This document shows positions 32,231 to 53,924 of a DNA stretch of 64,000 nucleotides, piece by piece. A program made the translations under genes and the position numbers. Positions within the stretch are counted from its first letter, which is position 1; each line of letters opens with the position of its first letter. The notes under the pieces were generated by a model. That model searched no databases and had not been told where the DNA came from. It saw nothing but the letters and a program-made list of their open reading frames with translations. The stretch comes from Longimicrobiales bacterium (lineage in GTDB: Bacteria; Gemmatimonadota; Gemmatimonadetes; Longimicrobiales; Gaopeijiaceae), in NCBI GenBank assembly GCA_965202985.1, contig CBDBCF010000002.1:1-64000 (forward strand). The letters run 5' to 3'.

Positions 32231-32455
32231 CCCACCCCAAAAAAGCCGGGCCGATCCAAACATTGGAAACGCCCAATTTTCGGCGCGAACTTGCATTCGC
32301 CTTCGGACCGGACCGTCTCTCGGCGCCGGCCGACGGCGGGGCTGGCAAGCTCCAGGATTCGACGCGATACTACCGGTAGGGTTGCGGGCAGGAGGCGCCG
32401 GCCACGACCCGGGGAACCGGGGACCACGGTTGCCAATCGGAGGGGAGGCGAGGGC

Positions 32456-33097
32456 ATGTTCGGCATCGACTGGGAGGCGGTGACCGCGATCGCCACGACC
32501 GCGGGGGCGGTGGTGGCGGCGATCGGCGTGCTGGTGGGACTCGCAGCCGGACGGAGGGCGCTTCGGAACTTTCGCCGGGAGATGGGCGAGGAGTTCCGCG
32601 TCGCGCGAGCCGAAACGGCGAAGGAGTTCCGCGCCGTGCGGGAGGAGGCGCAAGAGGCTCGTGCGGAGACGGGTCGCGAGTTTCGGGCAGTCCGCACGGA
32701 GGTGGAAGGGGTTCGCCAGGATGTGCGGGAGGCTCGCGTGGAGGCGGCCCGCGAGTTTCGGGCGATCCGCACGGAGGTGGAGGGAGTTCGCCAGGATGTG
32801 CGGGAGGCTCGCGTGGAGGCGGCCCGCGAGTTTCGGGCAGTCCGCACGGAGGTGGAGGGGGTTCGCCAGGATGTGCGGGAGGCTCGCGTGGAGGCGGCCC
32901 GCGAGTTTCGGGCAGTCCGCACGGAGGTGGAAGGGGTTCGCCAGGATGTGCGGGAGAAGGTGGCTGCCCCGCGGGCCGTGGCGGGCTCCGCAATGGTTCG
33001 AGAACCCTCGGTTCCATACGAGAGCGAGGACCGGCAAGACGACACCGACCGGCAAGGCGAGGCCGATCCCTCGCGACACGCGGACGAGGCCGAATAG
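32456..33097 (+). CDS. Membrane-anchored coiled-coil protein with 25-aa tandem repeats
   Basis: SD GGAGG before ATG 32456; N-terminal TM helix; EFRAVRTEVEGVRQDVREARVEAAR x~3.7. Confidence 0.75.
   Translation: MFGIDWEAVTAIATTAGAVVAAIGVLVGLAAGRRALRNFRREMGEEFRVARAETAKEFRAVREEAQEARAETGREFRAVRTEVEGVRQDVREARVEAAREFRAIRTEVEGVRQDVREARVEAAREFRAVRTEVEGVRQDVREARVEAAREFRAVRTEVEGVRQDVREKVAAPRAVAGSAMVREPSVPYESEDRQDDTDRQGEADPSRHADEAE
32678..32956 (+). repeat. 75-bp near-perfect tandem repeat, ~3.7 copies
   Basis: Units start at 32678, 32753, 32828 and 32903. Confidence 0.95.
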
Positions 33098-33692: not shown

Positions 33693-36600
33693 ATGACACG
33701 TACTTTGTTCGGAAGCAGTCCCGGAACGCGGGGCGGAGGGCTGGTCGCGGCGGCGTTCGCCGTGCTTGCCTTCGCACCGGCGGCCCAGGCTCAGACGGGG
33801 ACCGTCATCGGGACGGTGACCGACGCGGCCTCTGCCCGCCCCCTCGAGTCGGCGCAGGTCTACGTCGAGGGCGCCAGCGTCGGGACCTTGACCAACAGCA
33901 GCGGCAGGTTCGTGCTGGTGGGCGCCCCGGCGGGCGAGCAGACCGTGATCGTCGAACTCGTCGGGTATCGTTCGGCGTCCCAGACGGTTTCGGTCACCGC
34001 GGGCCAAACGGCCACCGTCAACTTCGCGGTCTCGGTGACGGCGATCGCGCTGGACCAGATCGTGGTGACCGGCACCGGCGTCGCAACCGAGCGCAAGAAG
34101 CTCGGCAACTCGATCGCAACGGTGGACGTGTCCAACCTGGAGAACACGCCGATCACCAGCTTCAGCGATGTTCTTCAAGGTCGCGAAGCCGGCGTGGTCG
34201 GGCTCCCGGGGGGGGGCGACACCGGAGCGGGCGGAAGGATTCGCATCCGCGGGTCCGCGTCCCTGTCCCAGTCCAACGAGCCGATCGTCTACGTGGACGG
34301 CGTGCGGATCGACCGGGGCTCGGGAGGCAGCTGGGGCGCCGGTCAGGCCCAGACGCGCCGGATCGACGACATCGACCCGAACTCGATCGACCGGATCGAG
34401 ATCCTCAAGGGCGCGGCGGCGGCCACGCTGTACGGCACCGAAGCGTCCAACGGCGTGATCCAGATCTTCACCAAGCGCGGCCAGCAGGGCGCGCCCCGGT
34501 GGACGGTCCAGACCAACCAGACGGCGTTGCGGGCGCCGCTGGACCGCTTCATTCCGCACGCGGACTTCCCGAGAAACGCCACCGAAGTGGCCCGCATGCA
34601 GGATCGATGGGGCGTCAGCCTCCAGCCCTACGAGGTCTATTCGACCCAGTACATGGCCGACTTCTACAACACCGGCTATGGCCAAGAGTACATGGGTTCG
34701 GTGTCCGGCGGCGGCGACCTGATCACCTACTACGCTTCGGGCCGCTACCAGAACGAGAACGGCCCCTTCGGCCTGGAAGACTTCATCAGGAACGAAGACA
34801 CGATCCGCCGTCGTCAGGGAACGCTCAACCTCAACATCTTCCCCTTCGACAACCTGCGGCTCCGCGTGAGCGGCGCCTACTCGGAGTCGAACCAGAGCCG
34901 ACTGGCGGGCGGAAACAACATCTTCGGCGTCTTCTCTCTGGGCCTCATGGGCCAGATGCGCCTTGCGAACACCGAACGCTGGGTCGAGAGAACCCTGAAC
35001 GACCCGGATCTCGCGGACGAGAGCGTCAATCGCTACGGCAGCTTGGCGTTCGCGACGCTCAGAGAGGCGGGCGAACGCGACAGCGAAGAAGACGTGGAGC
35101 ACTTCGTCGGCAGCTTGAACGCGAACTGGACGATCAGCGACGGCTTGGTGTTCGACGGAACCTTCGGCGTGGACGTGACCAACGGACGCAACGTCTCCTT
35201 CTTCCCCTTCGGATGGAACGTGGACGGGTTCAGCACGTACTACACGGAAGGAAACAGGGCCATCGGCGACCGGAACCACCGCGAGGTCACGGGCGACTTC
35301 AAGGTGTCCTACGACAACAACTTCACCGACGACATCAGCAGCACGCTGCTCGTCGGAACGCAGGGCTTCCTGAGTCAGAACGTGTACAGCGGCGGCAGCG
35401 GCCAGCAGTTCCCCGGCCCCGGCTTGGAGGTGGCGAGCGCCGGCGCAAACCAGTCGATCTCCGAGAGCTGGCTTCGCGAGGTCAACGCCGGCGTGTACTT
35501 CCAAGAGCAGCTCGGGTACCAGGACTGGGCGTTCTTGACGCTGGGCGCGCGCTTCGACGCCAACAGCGCGTTCGGCGAAGACTTCGAGACGGCCACCTAT
35601 CCCAAGGCCGCGCTGTCGCTGGTTCCGACCGATCTCTTCGACTGGAACAGCGAGACGCTCTCGACCTTCAGGCTGCGCGGAGCTTGGGGCCGTTCCGGTC
35701 TCCAGCCCGGCGCCTTCGACAAGTTCACCACCTATACTCCCCTTCCGGCCGAAGTCGGCCCCGGCCTGCAGCCCGGCAACCTGGGGAACCAAGCCCTGGC
35801 CCCGGAGATCACCGAAGAGTGGGAAGTCGGCGCCGAGTTCGGGCTCTGGAACGACCGCGTTGGAATCGACTTCACCTACTGGAACCGCGTGACCCGGGAC
35901 GCCCTGGTTGCCCGCCAGTTCCCGGTGACCGGCGGCTTCACGCGCACGCAGCTGGACAACATCGGCCAGATGGACGCGACGGGCTTCGAGCTGTCGTTGA
36001 CGGGTTCGGTCGTCAACACCGAGAGCTTTGCTGTCAACGTCTTTGCGAACACGGCCTACATCGACGAAATCGTGACGGATCTTGGCGGTGCCCCGCCGAT
36101 CAAGTCGGGGGGATCGTATCCTCGCTACCGGAACTTCATCAAGGAAGGCTATGCCCCCGGATCGTTCTTCGGAGCGGTTCTTGATCCGACGATGGCAATT
36201 CCGCTCGCCCTTGTGTCGACCAACAGATGCATGGAGCCTTCGCGCGCCGCGGCTCTGGAGTACTTCAGCGAGCCCCGGAGCCTTTCGGCGTTCGAGGTGA
36301 TCCCCTCGGGTTGCGCGGGCGGATCCGCCGAGTACTTGGACAGCTACATCGGCAAGCCCACGCCCGACTTCGCCGGGTCGTTCGGCTTCGACGTGAGCTT
36401 CCTGGACAACTTCGAGCTGTCCAGCAACTTCGAGTACAAGATGGGCAACTTCCACACCCAGGACCTGACGGGCGCGTTCCGTCAGGCCAACGCCGTGATC
36501 GGCCGCAATGTGCCGGGGACGGCACGGGTCGGCGCAGTGTTGCTCAACCCCGCATCCACGGCGGAGCAACGCCTCGACGCCGCCCTCGAATGGGCGCGCG

Positions 36601-36920
36601 AACTTCGGGCGCTGGCGCCGATGTCGGGGATGAACCAGATCTGGACGTCGGACTTCATCCGGTGGCGCGAAGTTTCGCTTTCCTACCGCGTACCGTCGGA
36701 CTTCGTCGAGAACATGGGCCTGAGCAACGCGACGGTCACACTCGGCGGCCGCAACGTGAGCCTCTGGATGTTCGGCGACTACCGGGGCATCGACCCCGAG
36801 ATCAATCCGCAGAGCACCTGCACCGGCGGAGGGATCAACTGCAACTTCCTCACGGGGACCGAGGCGTTCGGCGTGCCGCTTCCCCGACGGTTCACCTTCT
36901 CGCTCCGCGTGGGCTTCTAA
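33693..36920 (+). CDS. SusC/RagA-type TonB-dependent outer-membrane transporter
   Basis: SD GGAGG; signal peptide; IRIRGSASL, PIVYVDGV, IEILKGAAAATLYG..ASNGVIQIFTK; C-terminal RVGF. Confidence 0.92.
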   Translation: MTRTLFGSSPGTRGGGLVAAAFAVLAFAPAAQAQTGTVIGTVTDAASARPLESAQVYVEGASVGTLTNSSGRFVLVGAPAGEQTVIVELVGYRSASQTVSVTAGQTATVNFAVSVTAIALDQIVVTGTGVATERKKLGNSIATVDVSNLENTPITSFSDVLQGREAGVVGLPGGGDTGAGGRIRIRGSASLSQSNEPIVYVDGVRIDRGSGGSWGAGQAQTRRIDDIDPNSIDRIEILKGAAAATLYGTEASNGVIQIFTKRGQQGAPRWTVQTNQTALRAPLDRFIPHADFPRNATEVARMQDRWGVSLQPYEVYSTQYMADFYNTGYGQEYMGSVSGGGDLITYYASGRYQNENGPFGLEDFIRNEDTIRRRQGTLNLNIFPFDNLRLRVSGAYSESNQSRLAGGNNIFGVFSLGLMGQMRLANTERWVERTLNDPDLADESVNRYGSLAFATLREAGERDSEEDVEHFVGSLNANWTISDGLVFDGTFGVDVTNGRNVSFFPFGWNVDGFSTYYTEGNRAIGDRNHREVTGDFKVSYDNNFTDDISSTLLVGTQGFLSQNVYSGGSGQQFPGPGLEVASAGANQSISESWLREVNAGVYFQEQLGYQDWAFLTLGARFDANSAFGEDFETATYPKAALSLVPTDLFDWNSETLSTFRLRGAWGRSGLQPGAFDKFTTYTPLPAEVGPGLQPGNLGNQALAPEITEEWEVGAEFGLWNDRVGIDFTYWNRVTRDALVARQFPVTGGFTRTQLDNIGQMDATGFELSLTGSVVNTESFAVNVFANTAYIDEIVTDLGGAPPIKSGGSYPRYRNFIKEGYAPGSFFGAVLDPTMAIPLALVSTNRCMEPSRAAALEYFSEPRSLSAFEVIPSGCAGGSAEYLDSYIGKPTPDFAGSFGFDVSFLDNFELSSNFEYKMGNFHTQDLTGAFRQANAVIGRNVPGTARVGAVLLNPASTAEQRLDAALEWARELRALAPMSGMNQIWTSDFIRWREVSLSYRVPSDFVENMGLSNATVTLGGRNVSLWMFGDYRGIDPEINPQSTCTGGGINCNFLTGTEAFGVPLPRRFTFSLRVGF

Positions 36921-36933
36921 CGGATAAGGAGAG

Positions 36934-38262
36934 ATGCGGACAATGACCAAGAACAGGAACCGGAAGTCGACCCTGGGCGCGTTGGTCGGCGCGTTGATGT
37001 TGGCGGGCTGCGGCTTGCTGGACGTCGACAACCCGAACGCGCTCGTTCAGGAGGACTTCGAGAAGATCACGGCGGCGGCCGCTGCCGTGAACGGGTCGCA
37101 GGCGACCGTGGCCCGGGGCGTGGGATCGATCTACGCTTCGTTCTCCACGGTCGGAGACGAAATCACGTGGATCGGCTCTCGAGACGCGTGGAACGAACTC
37201 GACCAAGGTACGCCGGACAACACGGGCAACGAGTTCGTCGACGGATCGTTTCCGAGCATCGCCCAAGCCCGCTGGATGTCGAATTCGGTGGTGACGCTCA
37301 TGGAAGGGCACATCGCCGACGATCCGGGCAACACAGGTCTGACGGCGGAGCTGGCCCGGGCCAACCTGTACGCCGGCGTGGCGTACTCCACGATCGCACA
37401 GCTCTTCGACGACTTCGCGTTCAGCGATCGTACGGAGCCCGGGCCCCTCATCGGGCCCGACGGCATGAGAGGCGTATTCGACGAAGCGATCAGCTACTTC
37501 ACCGCCGCAATGGCGGCTGGAGGCAAAACGGCAACCCGAGCTCGGGCGGCAAGGGCGCAGGCCCATCATCAACGAGCGATTTGGGACCTGCTCAATCCGC
37601 CCGGATCGGCGCCGGGGAATCCGCTCGTGAACGACGCTAGCGCGAACGCCGACGCAGAGGCCGTGCTGGCGACGGTGGCCGGCACGGACTGGGCGTACCG
37701 ATTCGCGTATTCGTCTGCGACGGTCAGCAACAACTTGGCCTTCCAGGTGAACGAGCGAGGGGAGTTGCAGATCGGTCCCGACTACGTGACCCGGGACAAC
37801 AAGGACGAGATCACCGGTCACATTCTGACGGACCCCATCGAAGGTGCCTTGGATGTCCGGTACAAGGCGCGCGTGGACGAGTTCCTCAAGGGGAGTTCGT
37901 ATTCCTCGGTTACCATAGTCAGCGAGCGCGGGTTGCGGCTGATCTTGGCCGAAGCCGCGCTGGCCAGCAACGACCAAGACGGGTTTGCCGCACAGATCAA
38001 CATGGTGCGGGCCATGGACGAGCTTGCGCCGTACTCCGGACAGATACCGGCCATGGACATGCTCCAGCACGAGCGTCGCGTGAACCTGTTCCTCCAGTTC
38101 AAGAGGTTGCAGGATCACTATCGATTCGGAGTCGCGAGCCAGAACTGGTTGCCGGGTTCGCCGGCCGCCTCCACTCCGGGCACGATGCTGCCGATCACGC
38201 GGATCGAGATCTTGGCAAACTGCCACCATCCGCAGAACGCGAACCACCCTTGCTCGGGCTAG
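36934..38262 (+). CDS. SusD/RagB-like lipoprotein
   Basis: Lipobox LAGC + LLDVDNPN; LILAEAAL, INMVRA, HERRVNLFLQFKRLQDHYR; directly follows SusC. Confidence 0.85.
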   Translation: MRTMTKNRNRKSTLGALVGALMLAGCGLLDVDNPNALVQEDFEKITAAAAAVNGSQATVARGVGSIYASFSTVGDEITWIGSRDAWNELDQGTPDNTGNEFVDGSFPSIAQARWMSNSVVTLMEGHIADDPGNTGLTAELARANLYAGVAYSTIAQLFDDFAFSDRTEPGPLIGPDGMRGVFDEAISYFTAAMAAGGKTATRARAARAQAHHQRAIWDLLNPPGSAPGNPLVNDASANADAEAVLATVAGTDWAYRFAYSSATVSNNLAFQVNERGELQIGPDYVTRDNKDEITGHILTDPIEGALDVRYKARVDEFLKGSSYSSVTIVSERGLRLILAEAALASNDQDGFAAQINMVRAMDELAPYSGQIPAMDMLQHERRVNLFLQFKRLQDHYRFGVASQNWLPGSPAASTPGTMLPITRIEILANCHHPQNANHPCSG

Positions 38263-38794: not shown

Positions 38795-39298
38795 ATGAGC
38801 CTTCGAGATTCGAGGCGCTCCGGCAGGCGGGCGGCTCTCTGCCTTGCCGTTTTCGCTTGCGGAGCGGCAGGATGCTATCGGTACGTGCCGACGGACGCGC
38901 CGCCGCCTGTCGGAACCGATGTTCGAGTCGCGCTGTCCGACGAGCAGGCTCTCCGGCTGAGCGAGCAGACCGGTCAGGTCGCCAAGACCTACGACGGGCG
39001 TCTCATGGGCGTCGGCGACGATTCCGTGTCGCTGTCGGTCGTGACCCTGAGGATGGCCTCCGAGTTTACGAGTGCAGCGACCTTTCGACAGACGCTGACC
39101 GTTTCCCGCGACGAGCTTGAAGGCCTGTCGGCCAGAGAACTCTCTGCGTGGCGGACCGGCGTTGTCGGGGTCTTGGCGGCGGCGTTGGCCTATGTTGTCG
39201 TCGACCGCGTCCAACAGGAAGTGGGGGGCAACACGGACGACGACGGGGACGACGGGACGCCCACAGGATCATTGATTTCGGGTCGGATGGGAAGGTAG
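38795..39298 (+). CDS. Hypothetical lipoprotein with C-terminal TM segment
   Basis: AAGC-YRYVP lipobox; hydrophobic helix near the C-terminus. Confidence 0.6.
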   Translation: MSLRDSRRSGRRAALCLAVFACGAAGCYRYVPTDAPPPVGTDVRVALSDEQALRLSEQTGQVAKTYDGRLMGVGDDSVSLSVVTLRMASEFTSAATFRQTLTVSRDELEGLSARELSAWRTGVVGVLAAALAYVVVDRVQQEVGGNTDDDGDDGTPTGSLISGRMGR

Positions 39299-39387
39299 GA
39301 AGGCGGAGTCGGCTGGCGATATCCGGCTACGGTTCCGGTCGGTTCCATTCTTGCCGCGCCGTATTGCCGTCGCCACGTTTAGCCCCC

Positions 39388-41025
39388 ATGCGATTCTTCA
39401 ACACGACAGGTCCGGTGGTGGCGGCCGACCACTACCTAATCCCGCCCCTCGACCGCGTGGACCTTGCCGAGCTCCGTCGGCTGATCGGGGAGAAGCGGTA
39501 CTTCGTGCTCTACGCGCCCCGGCAGACCGGCAAGACTTCGGCGCTCCTGGCGTTGCAGAGCTTGTTGAACGAAGAAGGCGACTACCGTTGCGTCTACGTA
39601 AACGTGGAGGGTGCGCAGGCCGCCCGAGAGGACGTGGGCCGCGTGGTCCGAGCCGTGCTGAGCGAGCTGGCTTCTCGAGCGGAAGACGGCCTCGGCGACG
39701 ATTCGCTCGAGGAAGTATGGCCGGAGGTTTTGGCCAAGCACGGTCCCGACGCGGGCTTGCGAGTGGCGCTGACGCGGTGGGCACGGGCCGTCCCCAAGCC
39801 GTTGGTGCTGCTGATCGACGAGATCGACGCCTTGGTGGGGGATTCGCTTCTGTCGGTGTTGCGGCAGTTGCGGGCGGGGTACGACATGCGTCCGGGCGGT
39901 TTTCCTCAGTGCGTGGTGCTGTGCGGGGTTCGGGACGTGCGGGACTACCGGATTCATTCGAGTTCGGCGAACACGCTGGTAGCGGGCGGGAGCGCGTTCA
40001 ACGTCAAGGCGAAGTCGCTGCGGCTGGGCGACTTTTGTCGAGACGAGGTGCGGGCGCTGCTGCGTCAGCACACGGAGGAGACGGGCCGGGCGTTTTCGGA
40101 GGAGGCGTTGGAAAGGGTGTGGGCGGAGACTCGGGGCCAGCCGTGGCTGGTGAACGCGCTGGCATACGCGATGTGCTTCGAGGGCGGGGACGGTGCGGGC
40201 CGTTCGCGGCGGGTCGAGGAGGCGGACGTTGTCGATGCGCGAGAGGCGTTGATCCGGCGTCGGGACACGCACTTGGACCAGTTGGCGGACAAGTTGCAGG
40301 AGGAGCGTGTGCGGCGGGTTGTGGAGCCGTTGCTGGCGGGTGGCGGGAAGACGAAGTTCGCGCCGCGCGACCTGGAGTACGCGCGGGACCTGGGGCTGGT
40401 GGCGAAGGACCTTCCGGTGCGCATCGCGAACCCGATCTACGGGGAGGTGGTGCCTCGGGAGCTGTCGTGGGAGCCGCAGGCGAACTTGGCGCAGGACCCG
40501 TCGTGGTACGTGAGCGAGTCGGGGGAGTTGGAGTTGGAGAAGTTGCTGGGGGCGTTCCAGGAGTTCTTCCGGGAGCATTCGGAGCACTGGGTGGAGCGGT
40601 TCCAGTACAAGGAGGCGGGGCCGCAGTTGCTGTTGCAGGCGTTCTTGCAGCGGGTGGTGAACAGCGGGGGTCGGATCGAGCGGGAGTACGGGCTGGGGCG
40701 GGGGCGGACGGACCTGCTGGTGCTGTGGCCGGCGGGCGGTGGTCGGGTAGGCGGGCGAGTCGGCCCGGCCGAGCGCGGGGGCGGGGCTGGGCCAAGCCCT
40801 CGGATGCGGAGGTACGTCGTGGAGTGCAAGGTGCTGCGCGCGGGGCTGGAGCGGGCGGTGGCGGAGGGGGTGGAGCAGACGGCGGGCTACATGGACGGAT
40901 GCGGGGCGGAGGCGGGGCACCTGGTGGTGTTCGACCGTCGGGAGGGGCGGAGCTGGGAAGAGAAGGTGTTCCGGCTGGACCGGACGGCCGAGAACGGAAC
41001 CGAGATCGCGGTCTGGGGCATGTAG
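39388..41025 (+). CDS. P-loop ATPase (AAA_35/STAND-like) + PD-(D/E)XK nuclease, copy 1 (545 aa)
   Basis: Walker [10 protein letters not shown], Walker [18 protein letters not shown]-terminal [14 protein letters not shown]...VECK. Confidence 0.85.
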   Translation: MRFFNTTGPVVAADHYLIPPLDRVDLAELRRLIGEKRYFVLYAPRQTGKTSALLALQSLLNEEGDYRCVYVNVEGAQAAREDVGRVVRAVLSELASRAEDGLGDDSLEEVWPEVLAKHGPDAGLRVALTRWARAVPKPLVLLIDEIDALVGDSLLSVLRQLRAGYDMRPGGFPQCVVLCGVRDVRDYRIHSSSANTLVAGGSAFNVKAKSLRLGDFCRDEVRALLRQHTEETGRAFSEEALERVWAETRGQPWLVNALAYAMCFEGGDGAGRSRRVEEADVVDAREALIRRRDTHLDQLADKLQEERVRRVVEPLLAGGGKTKFAPRDLEYARDLGLVAKDLPVRIANPIYGEVVPRELSWEPQANLAQDPSWYVSESGELELEKLLGAFQEFFREHSEHWVERFQYKEAGPQLLLQAFLQRVVNSGGRIEREYGLGRGRTDLLVLWPAGGGRVGGRVGPAERGGGAGPSPRMRRYVVECKVLRAGLERAVAEGVEQTAGYMDGCGAEAGHLVVFDRREGRSWEEKVFRLDRTAENGTEIAVWGM

Positions 41026-41036
41026 GAGGCGGACCC

Positions 41037-42671
41037 GTGCGATTCTTCAACACGACAGGTCCGGTGGTGGCGGCCGACCACTACCTAATCCCGCCCCTCG
41101 ACCGCGTGGACTTGGCCGAGCTCCGTCGGCTGATCGGGGAGAAGCGGTACTTCGTGCTCCATGCGCCCCGGCAGACGGGCAAGACCTCGGCGTTGCTGGC
41201 GCTGCAGAGCTTGCTGAACGACGAAGGCGACTACCGTTGCGTCTACGTGAACGTGGAGGCGGCGCAGGCGATGCGCGAGAACGTGCCGGCCGCGGCCGAG
41301 GTGATCCTGAGTCAATTGGCTCGCCGGGCAATGACCGGGGCGGGCGACGAGTTCCTGACTCGCGAGTGGCGGGGGATCCTCGACGAACACGGTGCCGGCG
41401 CAGTGGGAGAAGCCCTGGCCCAGTGGGCGGAGGCGTCCGACAAGCCGTTGGTGCTGCTGATCGACGAGATCGACGCCTTGGTGGGGGATTCGCTTCTGTC
41501 GGTGTTGCGGCAGTTGCGGGCGGGGTACGACATGCGTCCGGGCGGTTTTCCTCAGTGCGTGGTGCTGTGCGGGGTTCGGGACGTGCGGGACTACCGGATT
41601 CATTCGAGTTCGGCGAACACGCTGGTCGCGGGCGGGAGCGCGTTCAACGTCAAGGCGAAGTCTCTGCGGCTGGGCGACTTTTGTCGAGACGAGGTGCGGG
41701 CGCTGCTGCGTCAGCACACGGAGGAGACGGGCCGGGCGTTTTCGGAGGAAGCGTTGGAACGGGTGTGGACCGAGACTCGGGGCCAGCCGTGGCTGGTGAA
41801 CGCGCTGGCATACGCGATGTGCTTCGAGGGCGGGGATGGTGCGGGCCGTTCGCGGCGGGTCGAGGAGGCGGACGTTGTCGATGCGCGAGAGGCGTTGATC
41901 CGGCGTCGGGACACGCACTTGGACCAGTTGGCGGACAAGTTGCAGGAGGAGCGTGTGCGGCGGGTTGTGGAGCCGCTGCTGGCGGGTGGCGGGAAGACGA
42001 GGTTCGCGCCGCGCGACCTGGAGTACGCGCGGGACTTGGGGCTGGTGGCGAAGGACCTTCCGGTGCGCATCGCGAACCCGATCTACGGGGAGGTGGTGCC
42101 TCGGGAGCTGTCGTGGGAGCCGCAGGCGAACTTGGCGCAGGACCCGTCGTGGTACGTGAGCGAGTCGGGGGAGTTGGAGTTGGAGAAGTTGCTGGGGGCG
42201 TTCCAGGAGTTCTTCCGGGAGCATTCGGAGCACTGGGTGGAGCGGTTCCAGTACAAGGAGGCGGGGCCGCAGTTGCTGTTGCAGGCGTTCTTGCAGCGGG
42301 TGGTGAACAGCGGGGGTCGGATCGAGCGGGAGTACGGGCTGGGGCGGGGGCGGACGGACCTTCTGGTGCTGTGGCCGGCGGGCGGCGGTCGGTTAGGCGG
42401 GCGAGTCGGCCCGGCCGAGCGCGGGGACGGGGCTGGGCCAAGCCCCCGGATGCGGAGGTACGTCGTGGAGTGCAAGGTGCTGCGCGCGGGGCTGGAGCGG
42501 GCGGTGGCGGAGGGGGTGGAGCAGACGGCGGGCTACATGGACGGATGCGGGGCGGAGGCGGGGCACCTGGTGGTGTTCGACCGTCGGGAGGGGCGGAGCT
42601 GGGAAGAGAAGGTGTTCCGGCTGGACCGGACGGCCGAGAACGGAACCGAGATCGCCGTCTGGGGCATGTAG
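41037..42671 (+). CDS. ATPase + PD-(D/E)XK nuclease, copy 2 (544 aa)
   Basis: Same motifs; GTG start after TAGGAGG. Confidence 0.85.
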   Translation: MRFFNTTGPVVAADHYLIPPLDRVDLAELRRLIGEKRYFVLHAPRQTGKTSALLALQSLLNDEGDYRCVYVNVEAAQAMRENVPAAAEVILSQLARRAMTGAGDEFLTREWRGILDEHGAGAVGEALAQWAEASDKPLVLLIDEIDALVGDSLLSVLRQLRAGYDMRPGGFPQCVVLCGVRDVRDYRIHSSSANTLVAGGSAFNVKAKSLRLGDFCRDEVRALLRQHTEETGRAFSEEALERVWTETRGQPWLVNALAYAMCFEGGDGAGRSRRVEEADVVDAREALIRRRDTHLDQLADKLQEERVRRVVEPLLAGGGKTRFAPRDLEYARDLGLVAKDLPVRIANPIYGEVVPRELSWEPQANLAQDPSWYVSESGELELEKLLGAFQEFFREHSEHWVERFQYKEAGPQLLLQAFLQRVVNSGGRIEREYGLGRGRTDLLVLWPAGGGRLGGRVGPAERGDGAGPSPRMRRYVVECKVLRAGLERAVAEGVEQTAGYMDGCGAEAGHLVVFDRREGRSWEEKVFRLDRTAENGTEIAVWGM

Positions 42672-42682
42672 GAGGCGGACCC

Positions 42683-44314
42683 GTGCGATTCTTCAACACG
42701 ACAGGTCCGGTGGTGGCGGCCGACCACTACCTAATCCCGCCCCTCGACCGCGTGGACTTGGCCGAGCTCCGTCGGCTGATCGGGGAGAAGCGGTACTTCG
42801 TGCTCCATGCGCCCCGGCAGACGGGCAAGACCTCGGCGTTGCTGGCGCTGCAGAGCTTGCTGAACGACGAAGGCGACTACCGTTGCGTCTACGTGAACGT
42901 GGAGGCGGCGCAGGCATTTCGGGACGACATGGAACAGGCCTTGCGCGCGGTGCTGGCCGGCCTCGCGTCCCGTGCCCGCCGACTGGGCGACGACTTCTTG
43001 GCGAAGCAGTGGATCGACATCTTCGCGGACTATGGCCCCGGCGCGCTGGGCGAGGCGTTGCTTCGGTGGGCGGAGGCGTCCGACAAGCCGTTGGTGCTGC
43101 TGATCGACGAGATCGACGCCTTGGTGGGGGATTCGCTTCTGTCGGTGTTGCGGCAGTTGCGGGCGGGGTACGACATGCGTCCGGGCGGTTTTCCTCAGTG
43201 CGTGGTGCTGTGCGGGGTTCGGGACGTGCGGGACTACCGGATTCATTCGAGTTCGGCGAACACGCTGGTCGCGGGCGGGAGCGCGTTCAACGTCAAGGCG
43301 AAGTCGCTGCGGCTGGGCGACTTTTGTCGAGACGAGGTGCGGGCGCTGCTGCGTCAGCACACGGAGGAGACGGGCCGGGCGTTTTCGGAGGAGGCGTTGG
43401 AACGGGTGTGGACCGAGACTCGGGGCCAGCCGTGGCTGGTGAACGCGCTGGCATACGCGATGTGCTTCGAGGGCGGGGATGGTGCGGGCCGTTCGCGGCG
43501 GGTCGAGGAGGCGGACGTTGTCGATGCGCGAGAGGCGTTGATCCGGCGTCGGGACACGCACTTGGACCAGTTGGCGGACAAGTTGCAGGAGGAGCGCGTG
43601 CGGCGGGTTGTGGAGCCGTTGCTGGCGGGTGGCGGGAAGACGAGGTTCGCGCCGCGCGACCTGGAGTACGCGCGGGACCTGGGGCTGGTGGCGAAGGACC
43701 TTCCGGTGCGCATCGCGAACCCGATCTACGGGGAGGTGGTGCCTCGGGAGCTGTCGTGGGAGCCGCAGGCGAATTTGGCGCAGGACCCGTCGTGGTATGT
43801 GAGCGAGTCGGGGGAGTTGGAGTTGGAGAAGTTGCTGGGGGCGTTCCAGGAGTTCTTCCGGGAGCATTCGGAGTACTGGGTGGAGCGGTTCCAGTACAAG
43901 GAGGCGGGGCCGCAGCTGCTGTTGCAGGCGTTCTTGCAGCGAGTGGTGAACAGCGGGGGTCGGATCGAACGGGAGTACGGGCTGGGGCGGGGGCGGACGG
44001 ACCTTCTGGTGCTGTGGCCGGCGGGCGGTGGTCGGGTAGGCGGGCGAGTCGGCCCGGCCGAGCGCGGGGGCGGGGCTGGGCCAAGCCCTCGGATGCGGAG
44101 GTACGTCGTGGAGTGCAAGGTGCTGCGCGCGGGGCTGGAGCGGGCGGTGGCGGAGGGGGTGGAGCAGACGGCGGGCTACATGGACGGATGCGGGGCGGAG
44201 GCGGGGCACCTGGTGGTGTTCGACCGTCGGGAGGGGCGGAGCTGGGAAGAGAAGGTGTTCCGGCTGGACCGGACGGCCGAGAACGGAACCGAGATCGCCG
44301 TCTGGGGCATGTAG
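42683..44314 (+). CDS. ATPase + PD-(D/E)XK nuclease, copy 3 (543 aa)
   Basis: Same motifs; GTG start after TAGGAGG. Confidence 0.85.
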
Positions 44315-44336: not shown

Positions 44337-45710
44337 TTATTCCTCCCCCTCCAGCACGCGCGCCGGGCGCAACGCTTCTCGTCCGAACCGATCTCGCACC
44401 TGATCGGCGGCCCGCGCGATCCGGCGGTCCCGGTCCGACTCCGGGCCGAACGGCTTGCCCGGCCGACGAGGCCCCCTGCCGTCCCGCGCCGTCGCACCGT
44501 CGTCGTCGAACAGCTCCATCTGCCGGCCCGCGGCTTGCCGCACCAGGTTGCCGACCGCCACGCCCAGCAGCCGCACGCCGGTTCGTCGGCGATGGCGGAG
44601 TTCGCGAAGCAGGGAAGCGGCCACCTCGAACAGCCCCCGGTCGGTCTCCATGCCTTCGGGCTGCGTGCTGCCCGCCTGGCGCGTGCGGAAGTCGTGGTCG
44701 CGAACCTTGACGGTCACGGTGCGCGCGCGCAGCTCCTTGGCGCGAAGCTGGGCGCCCACCGAGCAGCAGAGGGCGAGAAGACGGCGCTCCAGCTCGTCGT
44801 CGTTGCCGATGTCCTGGAAGAAGGTCCTCTCGGTGCTGATCGACTTGCGACGGTCGCGGGCGTCCACCTCGCTGGGGTCGATCCCGCGCACGCGCTCCCA
44901 CAGCCAGTGCCCCCGAGTCGACCCGAACCAGCGCAGCAGCCACTTGCGCTCCACGGCGGCCGCGCCGGCCACGGTGCGAAGCCCCTTCGCCTCCAGCTGT
45001 CGCAGGAACGCGGGGCCGATCCCAGGCAGGTCCTGGAGCCGGAAGCCGGCCATGAACGCGGCTTCGTCGCCGGGAGGCACCACGTGGACGCCGTTGGGCT
45101 TCGCCAAGCGGGTGGCCACCTTGGCCACGAGCCGTTGCGTGCCGCCTCCCACCGACACTTCGATCTCTGTGCGCTCCCGGACCGCTCGCCGGATGCGGTC
45201 CGCCGTGTCGGCCAGCGCTTCGCCGGCCAGCATCCGTTCGGTGCCCGTCAGGTCCAGATAGAACTCGTCGATCGACGCGGCCTGCACCACGGGGGACAGG
45301 TCCCCCAGCGCAGCCCGGACCGTGCGGCTCCGCTCCACGCACGCGCCTCGCGGAACAGGCACGACCACGGCGTCCGGGCAAAGCCGGCGCGCGCGGGCCG
45401 TGGGCATCCCGGAGCGGACGCCGAACTCGCGGGCGGCATACGACGCGGAGGTGATCACGCCTCGGTTGCTGCGCCCGCCCACCAGCAGCAGGGATTCCTT
45501 TCCGGCGCCGTCGGGGTCCTCCAAGCGGGCGACCTGGACGAAGAACATGTCGCAGTCCACCAACAGGATGCGCCGCAGCCCGCCCGCCGGCAAAGGCGAC
45601 TCCTTCGCCTCGGACCGGCCTGCGGACTGGCCCGCGGGTTGGCTTGCCGACTGGCCCCGGGGCCCCGACGACGCCCCGGCGTCTTGCCAAGTGACCCGGT
45701 TTCTCGACAA
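44337..45710 (-). CDS. dinB: DNA polymerase IV
   Basis: [55 protein letters not shown] start after GGGGAGGG. Confidence 0.93.
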
Positions 45711-45788
45711 TGTTCCCTCCCCTTGGGCGCGACGCCGCTCGCGAAGTCGGCCTCGCGCCGCCACTCACGTTACAAGGAGACCCAACAC

Positions 45789-49142: not shown

Positions 49143-51029
49143 ATGAAGCACCGAACCGCCGCGGCGCTGGGCGTTGGCTTGACGGCCGTGCTGGCCTCGG
49201 CCGGCGCCTTGGTCAACGGATTCGCCTACGACGACCTGCCCATCGTCGCCGAGAACACGGACATCCACAGCCCGGCCACCCTGCCCGGAGCCGTTCTCGA
49301 TCCCTACTGGCCCGGTCCGCGCGGCCGGGAGCTTGGCCTGTGGAGGCCGCTGACGACCGGAGCACTCGGCCTTCAGTGGCAGATGTGGGGCGGGTCGCCG
49401 CTCGGCTTCCACGCAACGAACGTGCTCCTCTGCGGCGTGGTCGCGACGCTGCTGTTCGTCCTGATCTCCGGGCACGTCATGTCCCCGTCGGCGGCGTTCG
49501 CTGCGGGCCTGCTGTTCGCCGCGCATCCCGTGCACGTCGAGGCCGTGGCCAACGTGGTGGGCCTCTCCGAACTCTTGTCCGCAGTCTTCTTCCTTCTTGC
49601 CTGCATCGTCGTGGCCCGCCGTCCCGAGCCTGGGGCCATGACGGCCGGGCCCGTGGTCGTGGTGGCGCTCCTCTACCTGCTGGCACTCCTGTCCAAGGAG
49701 AGCGCCGCCGGGTTGCCGGGGGCCGTGCTCGCGGTCGACGCCTGCCGACGGAACGGAACCCTGCCCGGCGCCGGCCCCTACCTGCGCGACCGTGGGGCGC
49801 TCTACACCGCGATGGGAGGCGTGGCGGCACTGGTCCTGGCGGCGCGGTTCCATGTCTTGGGCAGCCTGGCGAGCGCCTCGCCGCCCCTTGGGGCCGAGGT
49901 CCTGGCGGAAGGAGGCGTGCCCCGCATCTGGACGGTGCTGTCGACCTGGCCCGAGATCGTTCGCCTGTTTGCGTTTCCGTTGCGGCTGTCGGCGGACTAC
50001 GCCCCGGCCGTGATTCCGCTCGCGCACGGGTGGACGTCGCGGAACGTCCTGGGGCTCGCGGCCGGGCTCGCCACGCTGGGTTGCGCATGGCTCTCCTGGC
50101 GGCGCGGGGGAGAGGCGCGCGCGGTCGCGTTCGGCGTCCTTTGGTTCGGCGCGGCCTACCTGCCGGCCTCCAACCTGCTCTTCCTGACCGGCACGTTGCT
50201 GGCGGAACGGACCCTGTTTCTGCCGTCCGCAGGGTTCGCGGCTGCGACCGGGTGGTTGGTGGACCGGTTCCGTCGTCGGCGTCCCCGCGCCGGCGTCCTG
50301 CTGTTGGTGCTGGCGACGGGCCTGCTCTTCGGGCGGGCGGTCGCCCGCGCGCCGGCGTGGAAGGACAACCAAGCCGTGTTCTCGACGCTCCTTCGCGACC
50401 AACCACGGTCCGGCCGGGCCCAGTGGGTGGCGGGAGACCTGTACCTGGAGCAGAGCGAACACGCTCGGGCGCTGGCGGCCTACGGGAGCGCGACGAGACT
50501 GCTGGGCGGAAGCTACGCGCTGCGGTCCGCCGCGGGCCGGCGTCTGCTGGCCGCCGGGCTCGACGGGGCGGGGGAGCAGATGCTTCGCGGGGCGTGGCGG
50601 GACCAGCCCCGAATCGGCGACGCGCCGGCTCGGCTGGCAGCGCTCTACGACCGTCAAGGGCGGTGGGTCGAAGCCGAGGCTGCTGCGCGGGCGGCGCTCG
50701 CGGCCGGGGCGGGAAGCGTGGTCCAGGGTCACCTGCTCGCGCGAGCGCTGGCCAGCCAAGGCCGACATGCCGAGGCGGCGGAAGCCCGGAGGGCGGTCAT
50801 CCGCTCCGGAGAGGACCGGTGGCAGCAGTGGGCCTGGTTGGCGGAGGCGGAGTTCGCCGCCGGGCGGTTCGTCGAGGCGCTGGACCACCTGGACTCGGCC
50901 CGCGTCCGCACCGACAACGCCCAAGACGTCGCTCGGATCGACTCGATCCGCGCCCAATACCGCAAGCTGCTTCGAGAAGGAGACCTCAAATGCAATCTCA
51001 AAACGGATTCACGCTCATCGAACTGCTGA
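49143..51029 (+). CDS. TMTC-like (DUF1736) GT-C membrane glycosyltransferase with C-terminal TPRs
   Basis: FAYDDLPIV, WRPLT, HPVHVEAVANVVG, LLSKE, LSADY, YLPASNL, AERTLFLPSAG, WKDN; helical TPR-like tail. Confidence 0.85.
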   Translation: MKHRTAAALGVGLTAVLASAGALVNGFAYDDLPIVAENTDIHSPATLPGAVLDPYWPGPRGRELGLWRPLTTGALGLQWQMWGGSPLGFHATNVLLCGVVATLLFVLISGHVMSPSAAFAAGLLFAAHPVHVEAVANVVGLSELLSAVFFLLACIVVARRPEPGAMTAGPVVVVALLYLLALLSKESAAGLPGAVLAVDACRRNGTLPGAGPYLRDRGALYTAMGGVAALVLAARFHVLGSLASASPPLGAEVLAEGGVPRIWTVLSTWPEIVRLFAFPLRLSADYAPAVIPLAHGWTSRNVLGLAAGLATLGCAWLSWRRGGEARAVAFGVLWFGAAYLPASNLLFLTGTLLAERTLFLPSAGFAAATGWLVDRFRRRRPRAGVLLLVLATGLLFGRAVARAPAWKDNQAVFSTLLRDQPRSGRAQWVAGDLYLEQSEHARALAAYGSATRLLGGSYALRSAAGRRLLAAGLDGAGEQMLRGAWRDQPRIGDAPARLAALYDRQGRWVEAEAAARAALAAGAGSVVQGHLLARALASQGRHAEAAEARRAVIRSGEDRWQQWAWLAEAEFAAGRFVEALDHLDSARVRTDNAQDVARIDSIRAQYRKLLREGDLKCNLKTDSRSSNC

Positions 51030-51388
51030 TCGTCCTCGTCATCGTCGGCATCCTCATGGCGATCGCCGTACCCCAGTTCTCCGAGACTCGGGAGAAGGCG
51101 TTCTTCGCAGCCATGAAGGCCGACGCGAGAAACATGGCGAACCAGCAGGAGCTCTACTACACCGACAACTACAGCTACAGCAGCGATCTGTCGGCGCTGA
51201 GCTTCGTGTCGTCCGAAGGCGTAACAGTAAGCCCGGCGGGGACCACGTCGGGATGGTCGGCCACCGTCACGCACGACGCCCTGGGCGACGAGGAAGGCTG
51301 CGCCATCTACTACGGCACCGTGGCGGACAAGCCCACGATCGGCGGAAAGACGCCGGAGGCGGAGGGACAGGTCGTATGCACCAGTTGA
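50990..51388 (+). CDS. pilA: Type IV major pilin
   Basis: SD GAAGGAG; MQSQNG|FTLIELLIVLVIVGILMAIAVP; C-terminal Cys pair. Confidence 0.9.
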   Translation: MQSQNGFTLIELLIVLVIVGILMAIAVPQFSETREKAFFAAMKADARNMANQQELYYTDNYSYSSDLSALSFVSSEGVTVSPAGTTSGWSATVTHDALGDEEGCAIYYGTVADKPTIGGKTPEAEGQVVCTS

Positions 51389-51852
51389 GGCGCGGGAGCA
51401 GGTTGGGGCGCCGAACCGGCGGGGGACGCGGCGGATTCTCTCTGATCGAGCTGATGCTGGTGCTCGCGTGCGCCGCGGCGCTGGCGCCCCCGCTGGCGGG
51501 TTCGGCGGCCAAGCTGCGACGGGACTTCGAGCTTCGGCAGGCGCAAGAGGAGGCGGCTCGCCTTCTTGCCTTGGCCCGGTGGACCGCCGCGGGCACGGGC
51601 GGGGCCGTGGTCGAGCTGGTGGCGGACCCGCCGGGGGGAGTGGTCTTGTCCGCCGCGGGCGACACGGTGGCGTCGGCTCGGTTCGGAAGCGGAGGCGCGA
51701 CCTTGCGGCTTTCCAGGGACAGGGCGTCGGCTCGGCTGCGCTTCGGTCCGCTGGGGCTGGGTCTCGTGTCCAGTCAGACGCTCGCCTTTTCGGCGGCGGG
51801 CGAGGAGCGGTTGCTGGTCGTTTCTTCCCTGGGCCGCGTGACGCGGCGATGA
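51376..51852 (+). CDS. FimT/GspH-like minor pilin
   Basis: GG|FSLIELMLVL; C-terminal VVSSLGRV. Confidence 0.75.
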   Translation: MHQLRRGSRLGRRTGGGRGGFSLIELMLVLACAAALAPPLAGSAAKLRRDFELRQAQEEAARLLALARWTAAGTGGAVVELVADPPGGVVLSAAGDTVASARFGSGGATLRLSRDRASARLRFGPLGLGLVSSQTLAFSAAGEERLLVVSSLGRVTRR

Positions 51853-52196
51853 ACCGCACGGGGGCGTCGCTGGTCGAGGTCGTCGTGGCCGCCGCGCTGC
51901 TGGGCGTAGGGCTTTCAGGCGTGGCGGCGCTGACCGGCGCCTCGGCCCGGACGCTCGGTCGCGCGCGCGCCATGGACGACGCGCGCTTCGTCCTGGAGAG
52001 CTTCGCCGATTCCGTGCTCGCGACGGGGGGCGGGACGCCCGGCACGGGAGCGCGGCAGCTGGAGGCCGGAGTGCTGAGCTGGGAGTTCGCCGCGCCCGGG
52101 ACGACGGGTTGGGTGAGCTTTCAGCACGTGGCCCTGCCGGAGCCGATGGTGATCGACTTCGCCGCGCCGGCGCCCTTTCGCGCTGCGGCGCCGTGA
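51849..52196 (+). CDS. PilV-like minor pilin
   Basis: MNRTG|ASLVEVVVAAALLG; ATGA overlap. Confidence 0.7.
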   Translation: MNRTGASLVEVVVAAALLGVGLSGVAALTGASARTLGRARAMDDARFVLESFADSVLATGGGTPGTGARQLEAGVLSWEFAAPGTTGWVSFQHVALPEPMVIDFAAPAPFRAAAP

Positions 52197-52909
52197 GCGG
52201 GCGGGGCGGCTTCATGACGGCCGAAGCCGTGGTTGCGGCGACGCTCCTGTTGCTGTTGATCCAGGCGGCGTGGTCGGTGGTGGCCGTGCAGGGCGGGGCG
52301 GCCGTCCGCGTGGTGGAGGGCGCTCGGGTCTTGGAGGAGACGCGCTTGGTCGGGCACGTCCTGGGCCTTGAAGTGCGGCCAGGGCTGGCCGGTCGAGACT
52401 GGTCGGTTGCCGGGGGCGAACTGCGGTTGCGCGCGTTCCGCGGACTGGGCTTCGCATGTCCAGGCCAGCCTCCCGCCGGCTGGGGCGTGAACGTTTCCGG
52501 GCACCGCAACCCGGACCCGGACAAGGATTCGGTGCTGGTGGTCACGGCCCAGGGCGTTTGGCGGACGGCGGCGCTCGCGCGCCGGTCCAGGGGCCGCAAC
52601 CTGAACTGCCCGACGGCGGTCGGCTTTGCGCCCCAGGCATGGCGACTGGAACCGGCGGTCGCCGACGCAGTGGCGGGGCTGTACTTCGAGCGGGGATCGT
52701 ATCGGCTCTCGGACGGCGCGTTTCGCTACCGTCGCGGTAGCCGCTGGCAACCCCTGACGAGCGCCGGGCTGGCGATGGACTCGACCGCGTTGTCGGCGGT
52801 GGGCGGGGGCGTCGGCGTCCGGCTGGATTGGAAGAGCAGGGACGGGTCCGCCCAGGGTCGGGCAGCCGTGCCCTCTTCGCGTCGCTGGACCGCGTGGGGC
52901 CGCAGGTGA
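52193..52909 (+). CDS. PilW-like minor pilin
   Basis: RGG|FMTAEAVVAATLL; GTGA overlap. Confidence 0.65.
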   Translation: MSGRGGFMTAEAVVAATLLLLLIQAAWSVVAVQGGAAVRVVEGARVLEETRLVGHVLGLEVRPGLAGRDWSVAGGELRLRAFRGLGFACPGQPPAGWGVNVSGHRNPDPDKDSVLVVTAQGVWRTAALARRSRGRNLNCPTAVGFAPQAWRLEPAVADAVAGLYFERGSYRLSDGAFRYRRGSRWQPLTSAGLAMDSTALSAVGGGVGVRLDWKSRDGSAQGRAAVPSSRRWTAWGRR

Positions 52910-53919: not shown

Positions 53920-53924
53920 AGGTC

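Follow-up and report, generated by a model that had tools for sequence, protein, structure and literature searches.

Three tandem NTPase–nuclease genes in a Longimicrobiales bacterium share a near-uniform scaffold and carry divergent inserts within the ATPase domain

The array and its surroundings

The window considered here is a stretch of 64,000 nucleotides from the genome of a sponge-dwelling Longimicrobiales bacterium (contig CBDBCF010000002.1). It contains three intact open reading frames, free of internal stops and arranged head to tail on the forward strand, at 39388..41025 (gene 1, 545 aa), 41037..42671 (gene 2, 544 aa) and 42683..44314 (gene 3, 543 aa); gene 1 begins with ATG and genes 2 and 3 with GTG. 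Each product is predicted to comprise a STAND/Cdc6-like ATPase, a helical domain, a winged helix and a PD-(D/E)XK nuclease. The scaffold common to the three genes is 98–99% identical, with 25, 24 and 15 codon differences per pair when columns 75–140 are excluded (6, 5 and 3 of them non-synonymous), and the genes are joined by two 11-nt spacers of identical sequence (41026..41036 and 42672..42682, both +), the first of which, together with the preceding stop, makes up an AGGAGG Shine–Dalgarno site 7 nt upstream of gene 2. A putative leaderless sigma70-type promoter of weak consensus lies at 39351..39379 (+), with a −35-like element at 39351–39356, a 17-nt spacer and a −10-like element at 39374–39379, 8 nt upstream of the ATG. 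The upstream neighbour (38795..39298, +, 167 aa) has no family match and lies outside the repeat; downstream is a convergent gene for a dinB-like DNA polymerase IV (44337..45764, −), and the dinB-sod neighbourhood is kept in relatives that are without the array.

What sets the three genes apart is a single segment, the insert, which is found at 39622..39795 in gene 1 (allele 1, residues 79–136, 58 aa), at 41271..41441 in gene 2 (allele 2, 57 aa) and at 42917..43084 in gene 3 (allele 3, 56 aa), all on the forward strand. A first-pass annotation had described three near-identical genes with one divergent segment whose length explains all differences in gene length, and comparison of the reading frames and alignments bears out both statements. 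Its by-hand estimate of 30–45% amino acid identity between the segments held for one pair and was too low for the others (measured: 39, 48 and 46%).

Could the tandem be false, stitched together from strain alleles or dispersed paralogues? We find this hardly credible. Unitig depths were taken from runs X1, X5 and X7, which represent three studies. In X5, which may be the source sample, the segments have depths of 18.8, 21.3 and 24.2 against a flank of 22, with scaffold pieces of up to 61.5; in X7 the depths are 26.2, 26.9 and 25 against 27.5, with scaffold pieces at 64.6–72; and in X1 segments 2 and 3 stand at 17.7 and 28.7 against 17.8, with scaffold pieces of up to 49.5. Each segment is thus present at about 1x and the scaffold at near 3x, which speaks against the assembly chimaera that the annotation had named as a concern. 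Additionally, the unique flanks stop at both array ends, other assemblies contain these three types of insert on 99% scaffolds as well, and no dispersed paralogue in the genome bears the array inserts (best 64–71% nt). On the other side, none of the listed short-read unitigs from the three runs crosses the array, so the head-to-tail order rests on the assembly.

Domain architecture and known relatives

The array proteins score with AAA_22 (gene 1 product, 38.5 bits; cut-off 27) and weakly with AAA_35. A sequence search for solved relatives returned 0 at E ≤ 0.1. Structural alignment of residues 6–357 gives archaeal PABY2304 (2qen; Z 15.9, rmsd 4.2, 302 aligned) and SSO1545 (2fna; Z 13.7, rmsd 4.4, 301 aligned) as best matches, at 15% identity (the archaeal proteins have ~350 residues and leave the nuclease domain unaligned), followed by Cdc6/Orc1 (Z 12.9), MuB (12.3) and TnsC (12.0); NLR and Avs ATPases fall at Z 10.6–12.6 (Avs3, 10.6). 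The STAND motif names (N-terminal Arg, Arg after strand 4 and helical-domain GxP) reportedly go back to Leipe et al. 2004; at these places R23 is conserved in 100%, R182 in 98% and G250-Q251-P252 in 100% of 126 sequences. As first noted, all three array copies have Walker A K49-T50, Walker B D144-E145 and the nuclease residues D442 and E479-x-K481, and 21 of 22 near-full copies retain all 11 catalytic residues checked. Of the features of the Orc/Cdc6 clade (PMC12839542), the helix-extension-helix insert after strand 2 is present and is the variable segment itself, and the helical bundle and winged helix follow the ATPase to residue 357–365 in the model and structural alignments; strand 5 is not called in the model, the candidate residues being K/R207 (73/21%) and R212 (98%).

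The nuclease domain of gene 1 is predicted at 40471..41022 (+, residues 362–545), and in the model (pLDDT 84) contains a low-confidence Gly/Pro/Arg-rich loop at about 450–473, between motifs II and III. Foldseek returned nothing for this domain at E ≤ 0.001; the 50 rows of a VIA-align search are mostly restriction-type folds with middling Z scores, for example CidB (Z 8.3, rmsd 3.3, 137 aligned), McrC (7.0) and BamHI (6.9). The modelled domain appears to combine a restriction-endonuclease fold with a motif II Asp, a motif III E-x-K and a motif IV polar residue, following the PD-(D/E)XK scheme of PMC1913061; across 126 sequences, D442 is kept in 98%, E479 in 96%, K481 in 95% and Q497 in 96%. 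The family is one of STAND/Cdc6-like ATPases with a winged helix and a PD-(D/E)XK nuclease, and it is a sister of DUF1703.

DUF1703 proteins (PF09820 AAA-ATPase_like plus PF08011 PDDEXK_9) share the AAA+ module, a small helical region and a C-terminal PD-(D/E)XK domain with the motif-IV glutamine layout. The available portions of PMC1913061 and PMC6387759 describe their expansion in Cardinium cCpun to ~25 symbiont paralogues with intragenic recombination, as in the array family; in those portions homogenisation is not described and a retained segment is not localised. The array proteins differ in matching neither PF09820 nor PF08011 (none of the three at E ≤ 0.05, nor the C-terminus at E ≤ 0.5) and in their motifs, with APRQTGKT for RPRRFGKS at Walker A and DEID for DEYD at Walker B. 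Sisterhood follows from the homologues P0131 and P0170, which pass one DUF1703 model each (P0170 passes PDDEXK_9, at 29.7 vs 25.5 bits). The order of NTPase, HTH and REase is also that of the Cdc6/Orc1-clade NTPase-REase proteins of Zhang et al. 2016, relatives of CR effectors, which the accessible text of PMC5289972 and PMC10853773 describes as prokaryote-wide and tied to mobile elements and conflict; the array family differs in that no transposon ends were seen.

Two further comparisons concern the insert. It consists in the model (pLDDT 93–96) of three amphipathic helices (83–102, 106–118 and 123–134) between strand 2 (67–72) and the Walker B strand (139–144), with a glycine turn at G119 conserved at 88%. 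In Orc1/Cdc6 and Apaf-1 the initiator-specific motif (ISM), also a helical insert with a conserved glycine turn, takes the same topological place, and it affects origin specificity in Orc1 (PMC3089459) and forms a pore ring in Apaf-1 (PMC5050015). The equivalence is one of topology only, and the array insert differs in having three helices and a net acidic charge (−3 to −5, with a mean of −3.3 over the family), and this charge speaks against a simple contact with the DNA backbone. In the movement of target-recognition domains (TRDs) in Type III/I restriction-modification genes (PMC3467074), a variable module is likewise swapped between paralogues via conserved flanks and leaves incongruent trees; the array, unlike those systems, is without a methyltransferase partner, and its module is ~57 aa inside an ATPase.

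Old inserts on a homogenised scaffold

The segments are pairwise 54–56% identical in nucleotides and 39–48% in amino acids; pS is 0.58–0.69 in the segment, where synonymous sites are saturated, vs 0.03–0.06 in the scaffold. The segment is ragged-edged: in gene 1 a shoulder of 85–87% nt identity covers codons 42–75 and the divergence runs on as far as residue 136, whereas genes 2 and 3 agree already from W131. The word "hypervariable" in the first-pass annotation does not survive these comparisons, given an omega of ~0.18, changes of 0–1 aa between strains and no class of positively selected sites (M2a not better than M1a, 2ΔlnL 0.8, in our own rough codon model of 126 sequences). The segments are old alleles, stable between strains and not fast-changing. 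The winged helix, considered as a second specificity site, has a conserved core with variation in the flanking loops only, and the idea was given up.

Several lines of evidence show exchange among copies. The conflict between segment and scaffold trees is large (ΔlnL 706 vs 116–189 for other windows), and a near-identical segment is found on differing scaffolds (89% vs 78% nt). Insert allele 2 and its counterpart in P0015 are 79% identical, and the scaffolds that carry them 84–85%. In six proteins from other assemblies, scaffold variants shift between copy types and inserts change by 0–1 residue; A223G is present in five of the six, of both gene-1 and gene-3 types, and in none of the three array copies. 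The annotation had reasoned that homologues diverging evenly along their length would undo its proposal; divergence instead concentrates at the segment, which forms the island of divergence in 20 of 45 clusters of near-identical copies (rest at least 90%), in 9 of 31 at ≥95% and in 3 of 27 at ≥97%, with 0–2, 0–1 and 0 for the eight other windows compared. The pattern recurs in loci of Latescibacterota, Spirochaetia and Acidobacteriota, and the proposed constant scaffold with an exchangeable module stands on this recurrence, the tree conflict and the sharing of segments across scaffolds. Gene conversion continues among the copies and homogenises their scaffold; three old insert versions survive it and pass between scaffolds via recombination in the conserved Walker A/B flanks.

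The family and its neighbourhood

The family has ~26 copies in this genome, mostly among housekeeping genes and 65–86% identical in nucleotides when dispersed, and the array is one of ~20 loci. It is found in several sponge-symbiont phyla, with 60–75% identity across phyla, patchy presence (5/31 and 11/151 genomes) and empty sites in relatives. Terminal repeats or target duplications were not seen by eye in three filled/empty comparisons between diverged genomes, nor in the DNA flanking 20 copies in this genome and 12 copies in G159/G008. Carriage by phage was not borne out by any of the 29 candidate stretches in IMG/VR. The idea that copies mark points of rearrangement was rejected: synteny breaks at the copy in roughly half of 12 relatives' loci, and it also breaks in 17 of 29 random gaps of at least 1.5 kb.

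The reading of the array as a defence locus, and as an Avs-like sensor, fared poorly. None of the three proteins matches a PADLOC family at E ≤ 0.01 (library from 2023) or an NCBIfam family. Among the 145 genes immediately next to 80 named loci, 4 have near-full PADLOC matches. In random regions of two relatives, organisms other than those of most named loci, such matches number ~8 among 96 genes and fall in 4 of the 19 regions; ORF calling was crude. In this genome, defence-type matches flank 4 of 19 loci. A link to defence islands was accordingly set aside. In the literature within our coverage, which leaves out most subscription papers, we found nothing on the insert of this NTPase-REase family.

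What maintains the inserts?

We favour, at a probability of roughly 45%, the explanation that gene conversion homogenises the scaffold and selection keeps the insert alleles distinct; a divergence peak under gene conversion has been described as a signature of selection (PMC3924837). The array would then be an operon with three alleles from a large multicopy NTPase-REase family that sponge symbionts carry. By analogy with Cdc6/Orc1, TnsC and STAND proteins, we infer an ATP-gated switch that would form an oligomer on DNA and then license the C-terminal nuclease. Occupying the ISM position, the insert would set what the oligomer engages, be it the sequence or shape of DNA in the pore or co-assembling protomers, and would in this way determine specificity. 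Selection for several specificities would preserve the alleles as switch and nuclease stay uniform, and cutting of foreign DNA would be the likely role. NTPase-REase families reach tens of copies in symbionts, and across phyla no other part escapes homogenisation as often as the insert. The array amounts to an isogenic set made by nature, since its three proteins are ~99% identical apart from 57 residues. An insert that sets the target would be a reprogrammable module within an ATPase; if, on the other hand, swaps have no effect, ordinary concerted evolution accounts for the pattern.

Ordinary concerted evolution is indeed the rival to which we give most weight, somewhat doubtful as it is. On this view the insert is simply the least constrained part of the family (49% vs 75% aa) and would thus be the last stretch overwritten by homology-dependent conversion, leaving three functionally equivalent proteins. 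The low omega, the absent positive class, the ragged boundaries and the placing of variation at non-core helix positions all suit such a neutral island. Some counts also tell against selected alleles: in selection-free simulations, islands at intermediate homogenisation fall most often at the segment (134 of 209 at 92%), as do 20 of 30 under the strongest conversion barrier; secondary islands occur at residues 1–40 and 301–400; other arrays carry duplicate inserts (one type in three of four copies of L011, a near-identical pair in both G159 arrays); and L107 is uniform. Late homogenisation, however, leaves neutral islands elsewhere twice as often as at the segment (114 vs 57 of 171 at 97%), whereas the real islands lie at the insert in 9 of 10 cases at 95% and 3 of 3 at the strictest cut-off. 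Recombination also enters the insert, the P0043 insert matching P0038 at 100% up to its middle and P0015 at 100% from there on (an assembly chimaera is possible), and all three alleles are retained in a strain ~3–4% diverged in the flanks.

Apart from selected alleles on a converted scaffold, three functional proposals deserve comment. It is unlikely that this AAA_22/AAA_35-like family serves sponge symbionts as an immune repertoire of restriction type, single-gene and methylase-free, with specificity in the ISM-position insert, which gene conversion would shuffle among tens of paralogues, even half by half; if true, it would be an NLR-like allele library with its variable part inside the ATPase, not in a sensor domain. 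A selfish or addictive element that comes in incompatibility types and spreads for its own sake, in which the insert insulates paralogues such that only like protomers assemble or restrain, alleles coexist and loss of one is costly, is a poor prospect. Copy number, placement amid housekeeping genes, patchiness, identity between phyla and empty sites fit it, as does the link of NTPase+REase dyads to transposons in the accessible text of PMC5289972 and PMC10853773, but terminal repeats and target duplications were not seen, the divergence of dispersed copies means no recent burst, and synteny breaks show no enrichment of copies. Slimmer still is the chance of an Avs/NLR-like receptor array, whose insert would bind a phage protein and unleash indiscriminate DNA cleavage and abortive infection. 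The conserved STAND-type motifs, the fold similarity, the joining of a STAND-like ATPase to a nuclease and a second array that abuts a DISARM-like drmD-methylase operon point that way. Avs (AVAST) proteins, however, have an N-terminal effector and C-terminal sensor repeats, whereas the 545-aa array protein has the opposite domain order, its nuclease C-terminal, and no TPR or other sensor repeats; the missing PADLOC and NCBIfam matches, the lack of diversifying selection and of an excess of defence neighbours weigh against it as well.

A minor observation concerns the start of transcription: of the 20 copies that stand first or alone, 7 have (T/C)AnnnT 4–8 nt upstream of the start, compared with 6% among 3240 random ATGs, and the promoter-like layout upstream of the G159 and G008 copies is similar to that of the array.

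The array and its divergent segment

Three head-to-tail genes were delineated by ORF analysis on the forward strand (gene 1, 39388–41025, 545 aa; gene 2, 41037–42671, 544 aa; gene 3, 42683–44314, 543 aa), with identical 11-nt spacers between them. As the first-pass annotation had claimed, their DNA is near-identical outside one segment: the scaffold is 98–99% identical among the three genes, versus 54–56% for the insert (39622–39795, 41271–41441 and 42917–43084, all +), which has a GC content of 70–71% and pairwise amino acid identities of 39, 48 and 46%. The insert edges are ragged, with codons 42–75 of gene 1 forming a mostly synonymous shoulder and genes 2 and 3 matching again from W131 onward, a pattern that fits homologous conversion. 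A site-specific cassette swap does not fit such edges.

Is the array perhaps a chimera of the assembly, as the same annotation had cautioned? Part of the window is present in ten sequencing runs, six of which are labelled sponge or organism-coded samples (shares 0.38–0.56; three studies and one further run of the same sample). Unitigs from four of the 13 listed runs were compared with the window: all three inserts in runs X5 and X7, and the two listed for X1, occur at flank-level, single-copy depth, and scaffold pieces in these runs at about three times that depth; among the unitigs examined, none crosses the whole array. The same three inserts, with 0–1 changes, recur in six proteins of other assemblies. 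An artefact is thus extremely improbable, and the array observation is real. X5, which has zero differences to the window in the listed pieces, may be the source sample. X7 differs from the window at 81 of ~1,910 flank bases and, across the inserts, at 6/317, 9/226 and 4/223 bases; the inserts therefore change no faster than the flanks.

A putative leaderless promoter upstream of gene 1 and Shine-Dalgarno sites inside the spacers suggest, at the level of sequence, that the three genes share one transcript. By eye, expression signals across the family's upstream regions (loci L038–L117) track the host, with -10-like boxes directly before ATG in Binatia, Vicinamibacterales and Spirochaetia and Shine-Dalgarno sites in Latescibacterota.

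Protein architecture

Pfam places AAA_22 above cut-off (ATPase_2, AAA_16 and AAA_35 are weak), and neither PADLOC nor NCBIfam gave a family match for these proteins. In the structure model (pLDDT 75), the ATPase is followed by a helical domain and a winged helix, with an alpha/beta domain at the C-terminus; the top fold matches of the model, PABY2304 and SSO1545, are archaeal ATPases, and next come Cdc6/Orc1, NLRs, MalT, ORC, MuB and TnsC. Modelled alone, the C-terminal domain, with conserved D442, E479-C-K481 and Q497, matches restriction-type nucleases with middling Z. Between nuclease motifs II and III lies a Gly/Pro/Arg-rich loop of ~20 residues (40735–40806 and equivalents), which is missing from most paralogues and of other lengths in others.

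The variable segment coincides exactly with a three-helix insert running from strand 2 to the Walker B strand (pLDDT 93–96), in which the hydrophobic core is conserved and variation falls on the other positions. PMC12839542 describes an insert at this place, in Orc/Cdc6 and STAND ATPases, as the HEH insert. By topology, it would be equivalent to the ISM of Orc1, reported to contact DNA and affect specificity (PMC3089459), and to that of Apaf-1, described as a pore-lining ring between subunits (PMC5050015).

An old insert that moves between scaffolds

The insert had been called hypervariable, a term that we would drop. Its pS of 0.58–0.69 equals the family's saturation level (scaffold, 0.03–0.06), so the inserts are old; omega is 0.18 (two control windows, 0.08 and 0.10), and the codon model found no positive-selection class at the insert. 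What does hold is the proposal of an exchangeable module on a constant scaffold. Two copies agree at 89% over the insert and at 78% over the scaffold, and among 48 sequences the rest-of-gene tree is rejected by 706 log units with the insert versus 116–189 with seven other windows; together these indicate that the insert moves between scaffolds. One family protein, P0043, takes the first half of its insert from one insert and the second half from another. Scaffold conversion is continuing: A223G is found across copy types in 5/6 proteins of other assemblies and in 0/3 array copies.

Nor do homologues diverge evenly along their length, the outcome that the annotation had set against its own reading. 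Among 241 sequences, the insert is an island, i.e. a window that stays divergent in an otherwise near-identical cluster, in 20/45, 9/31 and 3/27 clusters whose remainder is at least 90%, 95% and 97% identical (denominators inflated by same-species orthologues); other windows are islands in 0–2, 0–1 and 0. Six named loci with two near-full copies were compared: identity drops at the insert in four (L108, L116, L040 and L101), one locus is uniform and one divergent throughout. Both metagenome pairs likewise dip at the insert.

A peak of divergence amid conversion has been published as a sign of selection (PMC3924837). We consider it rather unlikely, but a serious alternative, that the insert simply survives conversion without selection. 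It is already the family's most divergent part (49% versus 75% aa), and neutral simulations, in which neither new mutations nor copy losses occur, place 134/209 islands at the insert at 92% and 57/171 at 97% (10% to 67% depending on setting). The observed shares at the insert (20/24, 9/10 and 3/3) exceed most neutral settings, but a strong barrier could still account for the pattern. Two observations count against strict selection for difference: inserts are duplicated in the array at L011 and in both arrays of genome G159, and secondary islands occur at residues 1–40 and 301–400.

Family, context and function

The 3.86-Mb genome (2 contigs) holds 22 near-full family copies, of which 21 retain each of the 11 catalytic residues checked, plus about four broken copies. 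Matches occur in 5/31 and 11/151 genomes of relatives searched; in named genomes, 563 stretches were confirmed, and the best 80 of these (60–75% identity) fall in Gemmatimonadota, Latescibacterota, Vicinamibacterales, Binatia, Spirochaetia and Pseudomonadales. A profile search returned 7,077 clusters at the 50% identity level, 1,503 of them at E<=1e-30; clusters resembling the family comprise AAA_35/AAA_22 proteins of many different phyla. None of four relatives showed the array next to dinB, and in these the two flanks are not adjacent.

Gene context lends no support to the suggestion of a defence array. Most copies lie amid housekeeping genes, a defence-like neighbour is as frequent at loci here (4/19) as in random regions of relatives (4/19), and of 145 genes immediately adjacent to copies in named genomes, 4 are near-full defence matches. 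The exception is a second triple array at 181–186 kb of contig C2, directly upstream of a DISARM-like drmD (NCBIfam above cut-off) and a Type IIG/DrmMI-like methylase, with an IetA-like gene further on (C2:170,700–186,050; L213, L242); genome G001 shares this DISARM-like arrangement, with four family copies at the equivalent site (L011).

Our tentative reading, at a probability of roughly 0.45, is that the array proteins are ATP-gated oligomeric nucleases that would act on foreign DNA, their target or partner being set by the insert. They would work like the Cdc6/STAND NTPase plus REase class (PMC10853773 and PMC5289972). The insert's net negative charge weakens the case for direct DNA contact. 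A selfish element with insulated paralogues seems to us quite unlikely. Homology between copies in the genome ends at the start and stop codons, and neither inverted repeats nor target duplications were seen around them. An Avs-like protein sensor, to which the fold matches to NLRs are relevant, is a little less probable still. The family is a sister of DUF1703 (PMC1913061), not a member; a recombining 25-copy DUF1703 expansion has been published for Cardinium (PMC6387759), and module movement via conserved flanks is already known for restriction-modification genes (PMC3467074). Among main texts, we found no paper on the insert of this NTPase-REase family. The main value of the array is as a ready-made swap experiment.

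Other observations

In G159, nine copies at five loci (L232–L236), dispersed ones included, show ~85–100% identity across most of the scaffold and have a common short upstream promoter-like block; either genome-wide conversion or recent expansion would explain the near-identity. Every fetched copy in G002, of the same genus, is fragmented (L023, L024), through either lineage-wide decay or assembly error. P0130 (993 aa, two matched stretches) is possibly two tandem copies fused. A repeat in G001 (L014:15318–16494), probably of an insertion sequence family, matches ~18 dispersed places in the window's genome at 66–77%.

Within the window, a 268-aa ORF (32291–33097, +) carries about five near-identical 22-residue coiled-coil repeats, with nothing above cut-off in Pfam. 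A SusC-like TonB-dependent receptor and then a SusD-like gene follow at 33693–38262 (+); in four relatives, the homologues of this pair are located a long way from dinB. At 50957–54980, ORFs resembling Type IV pilins and one resembling PilM were recognized by eye.
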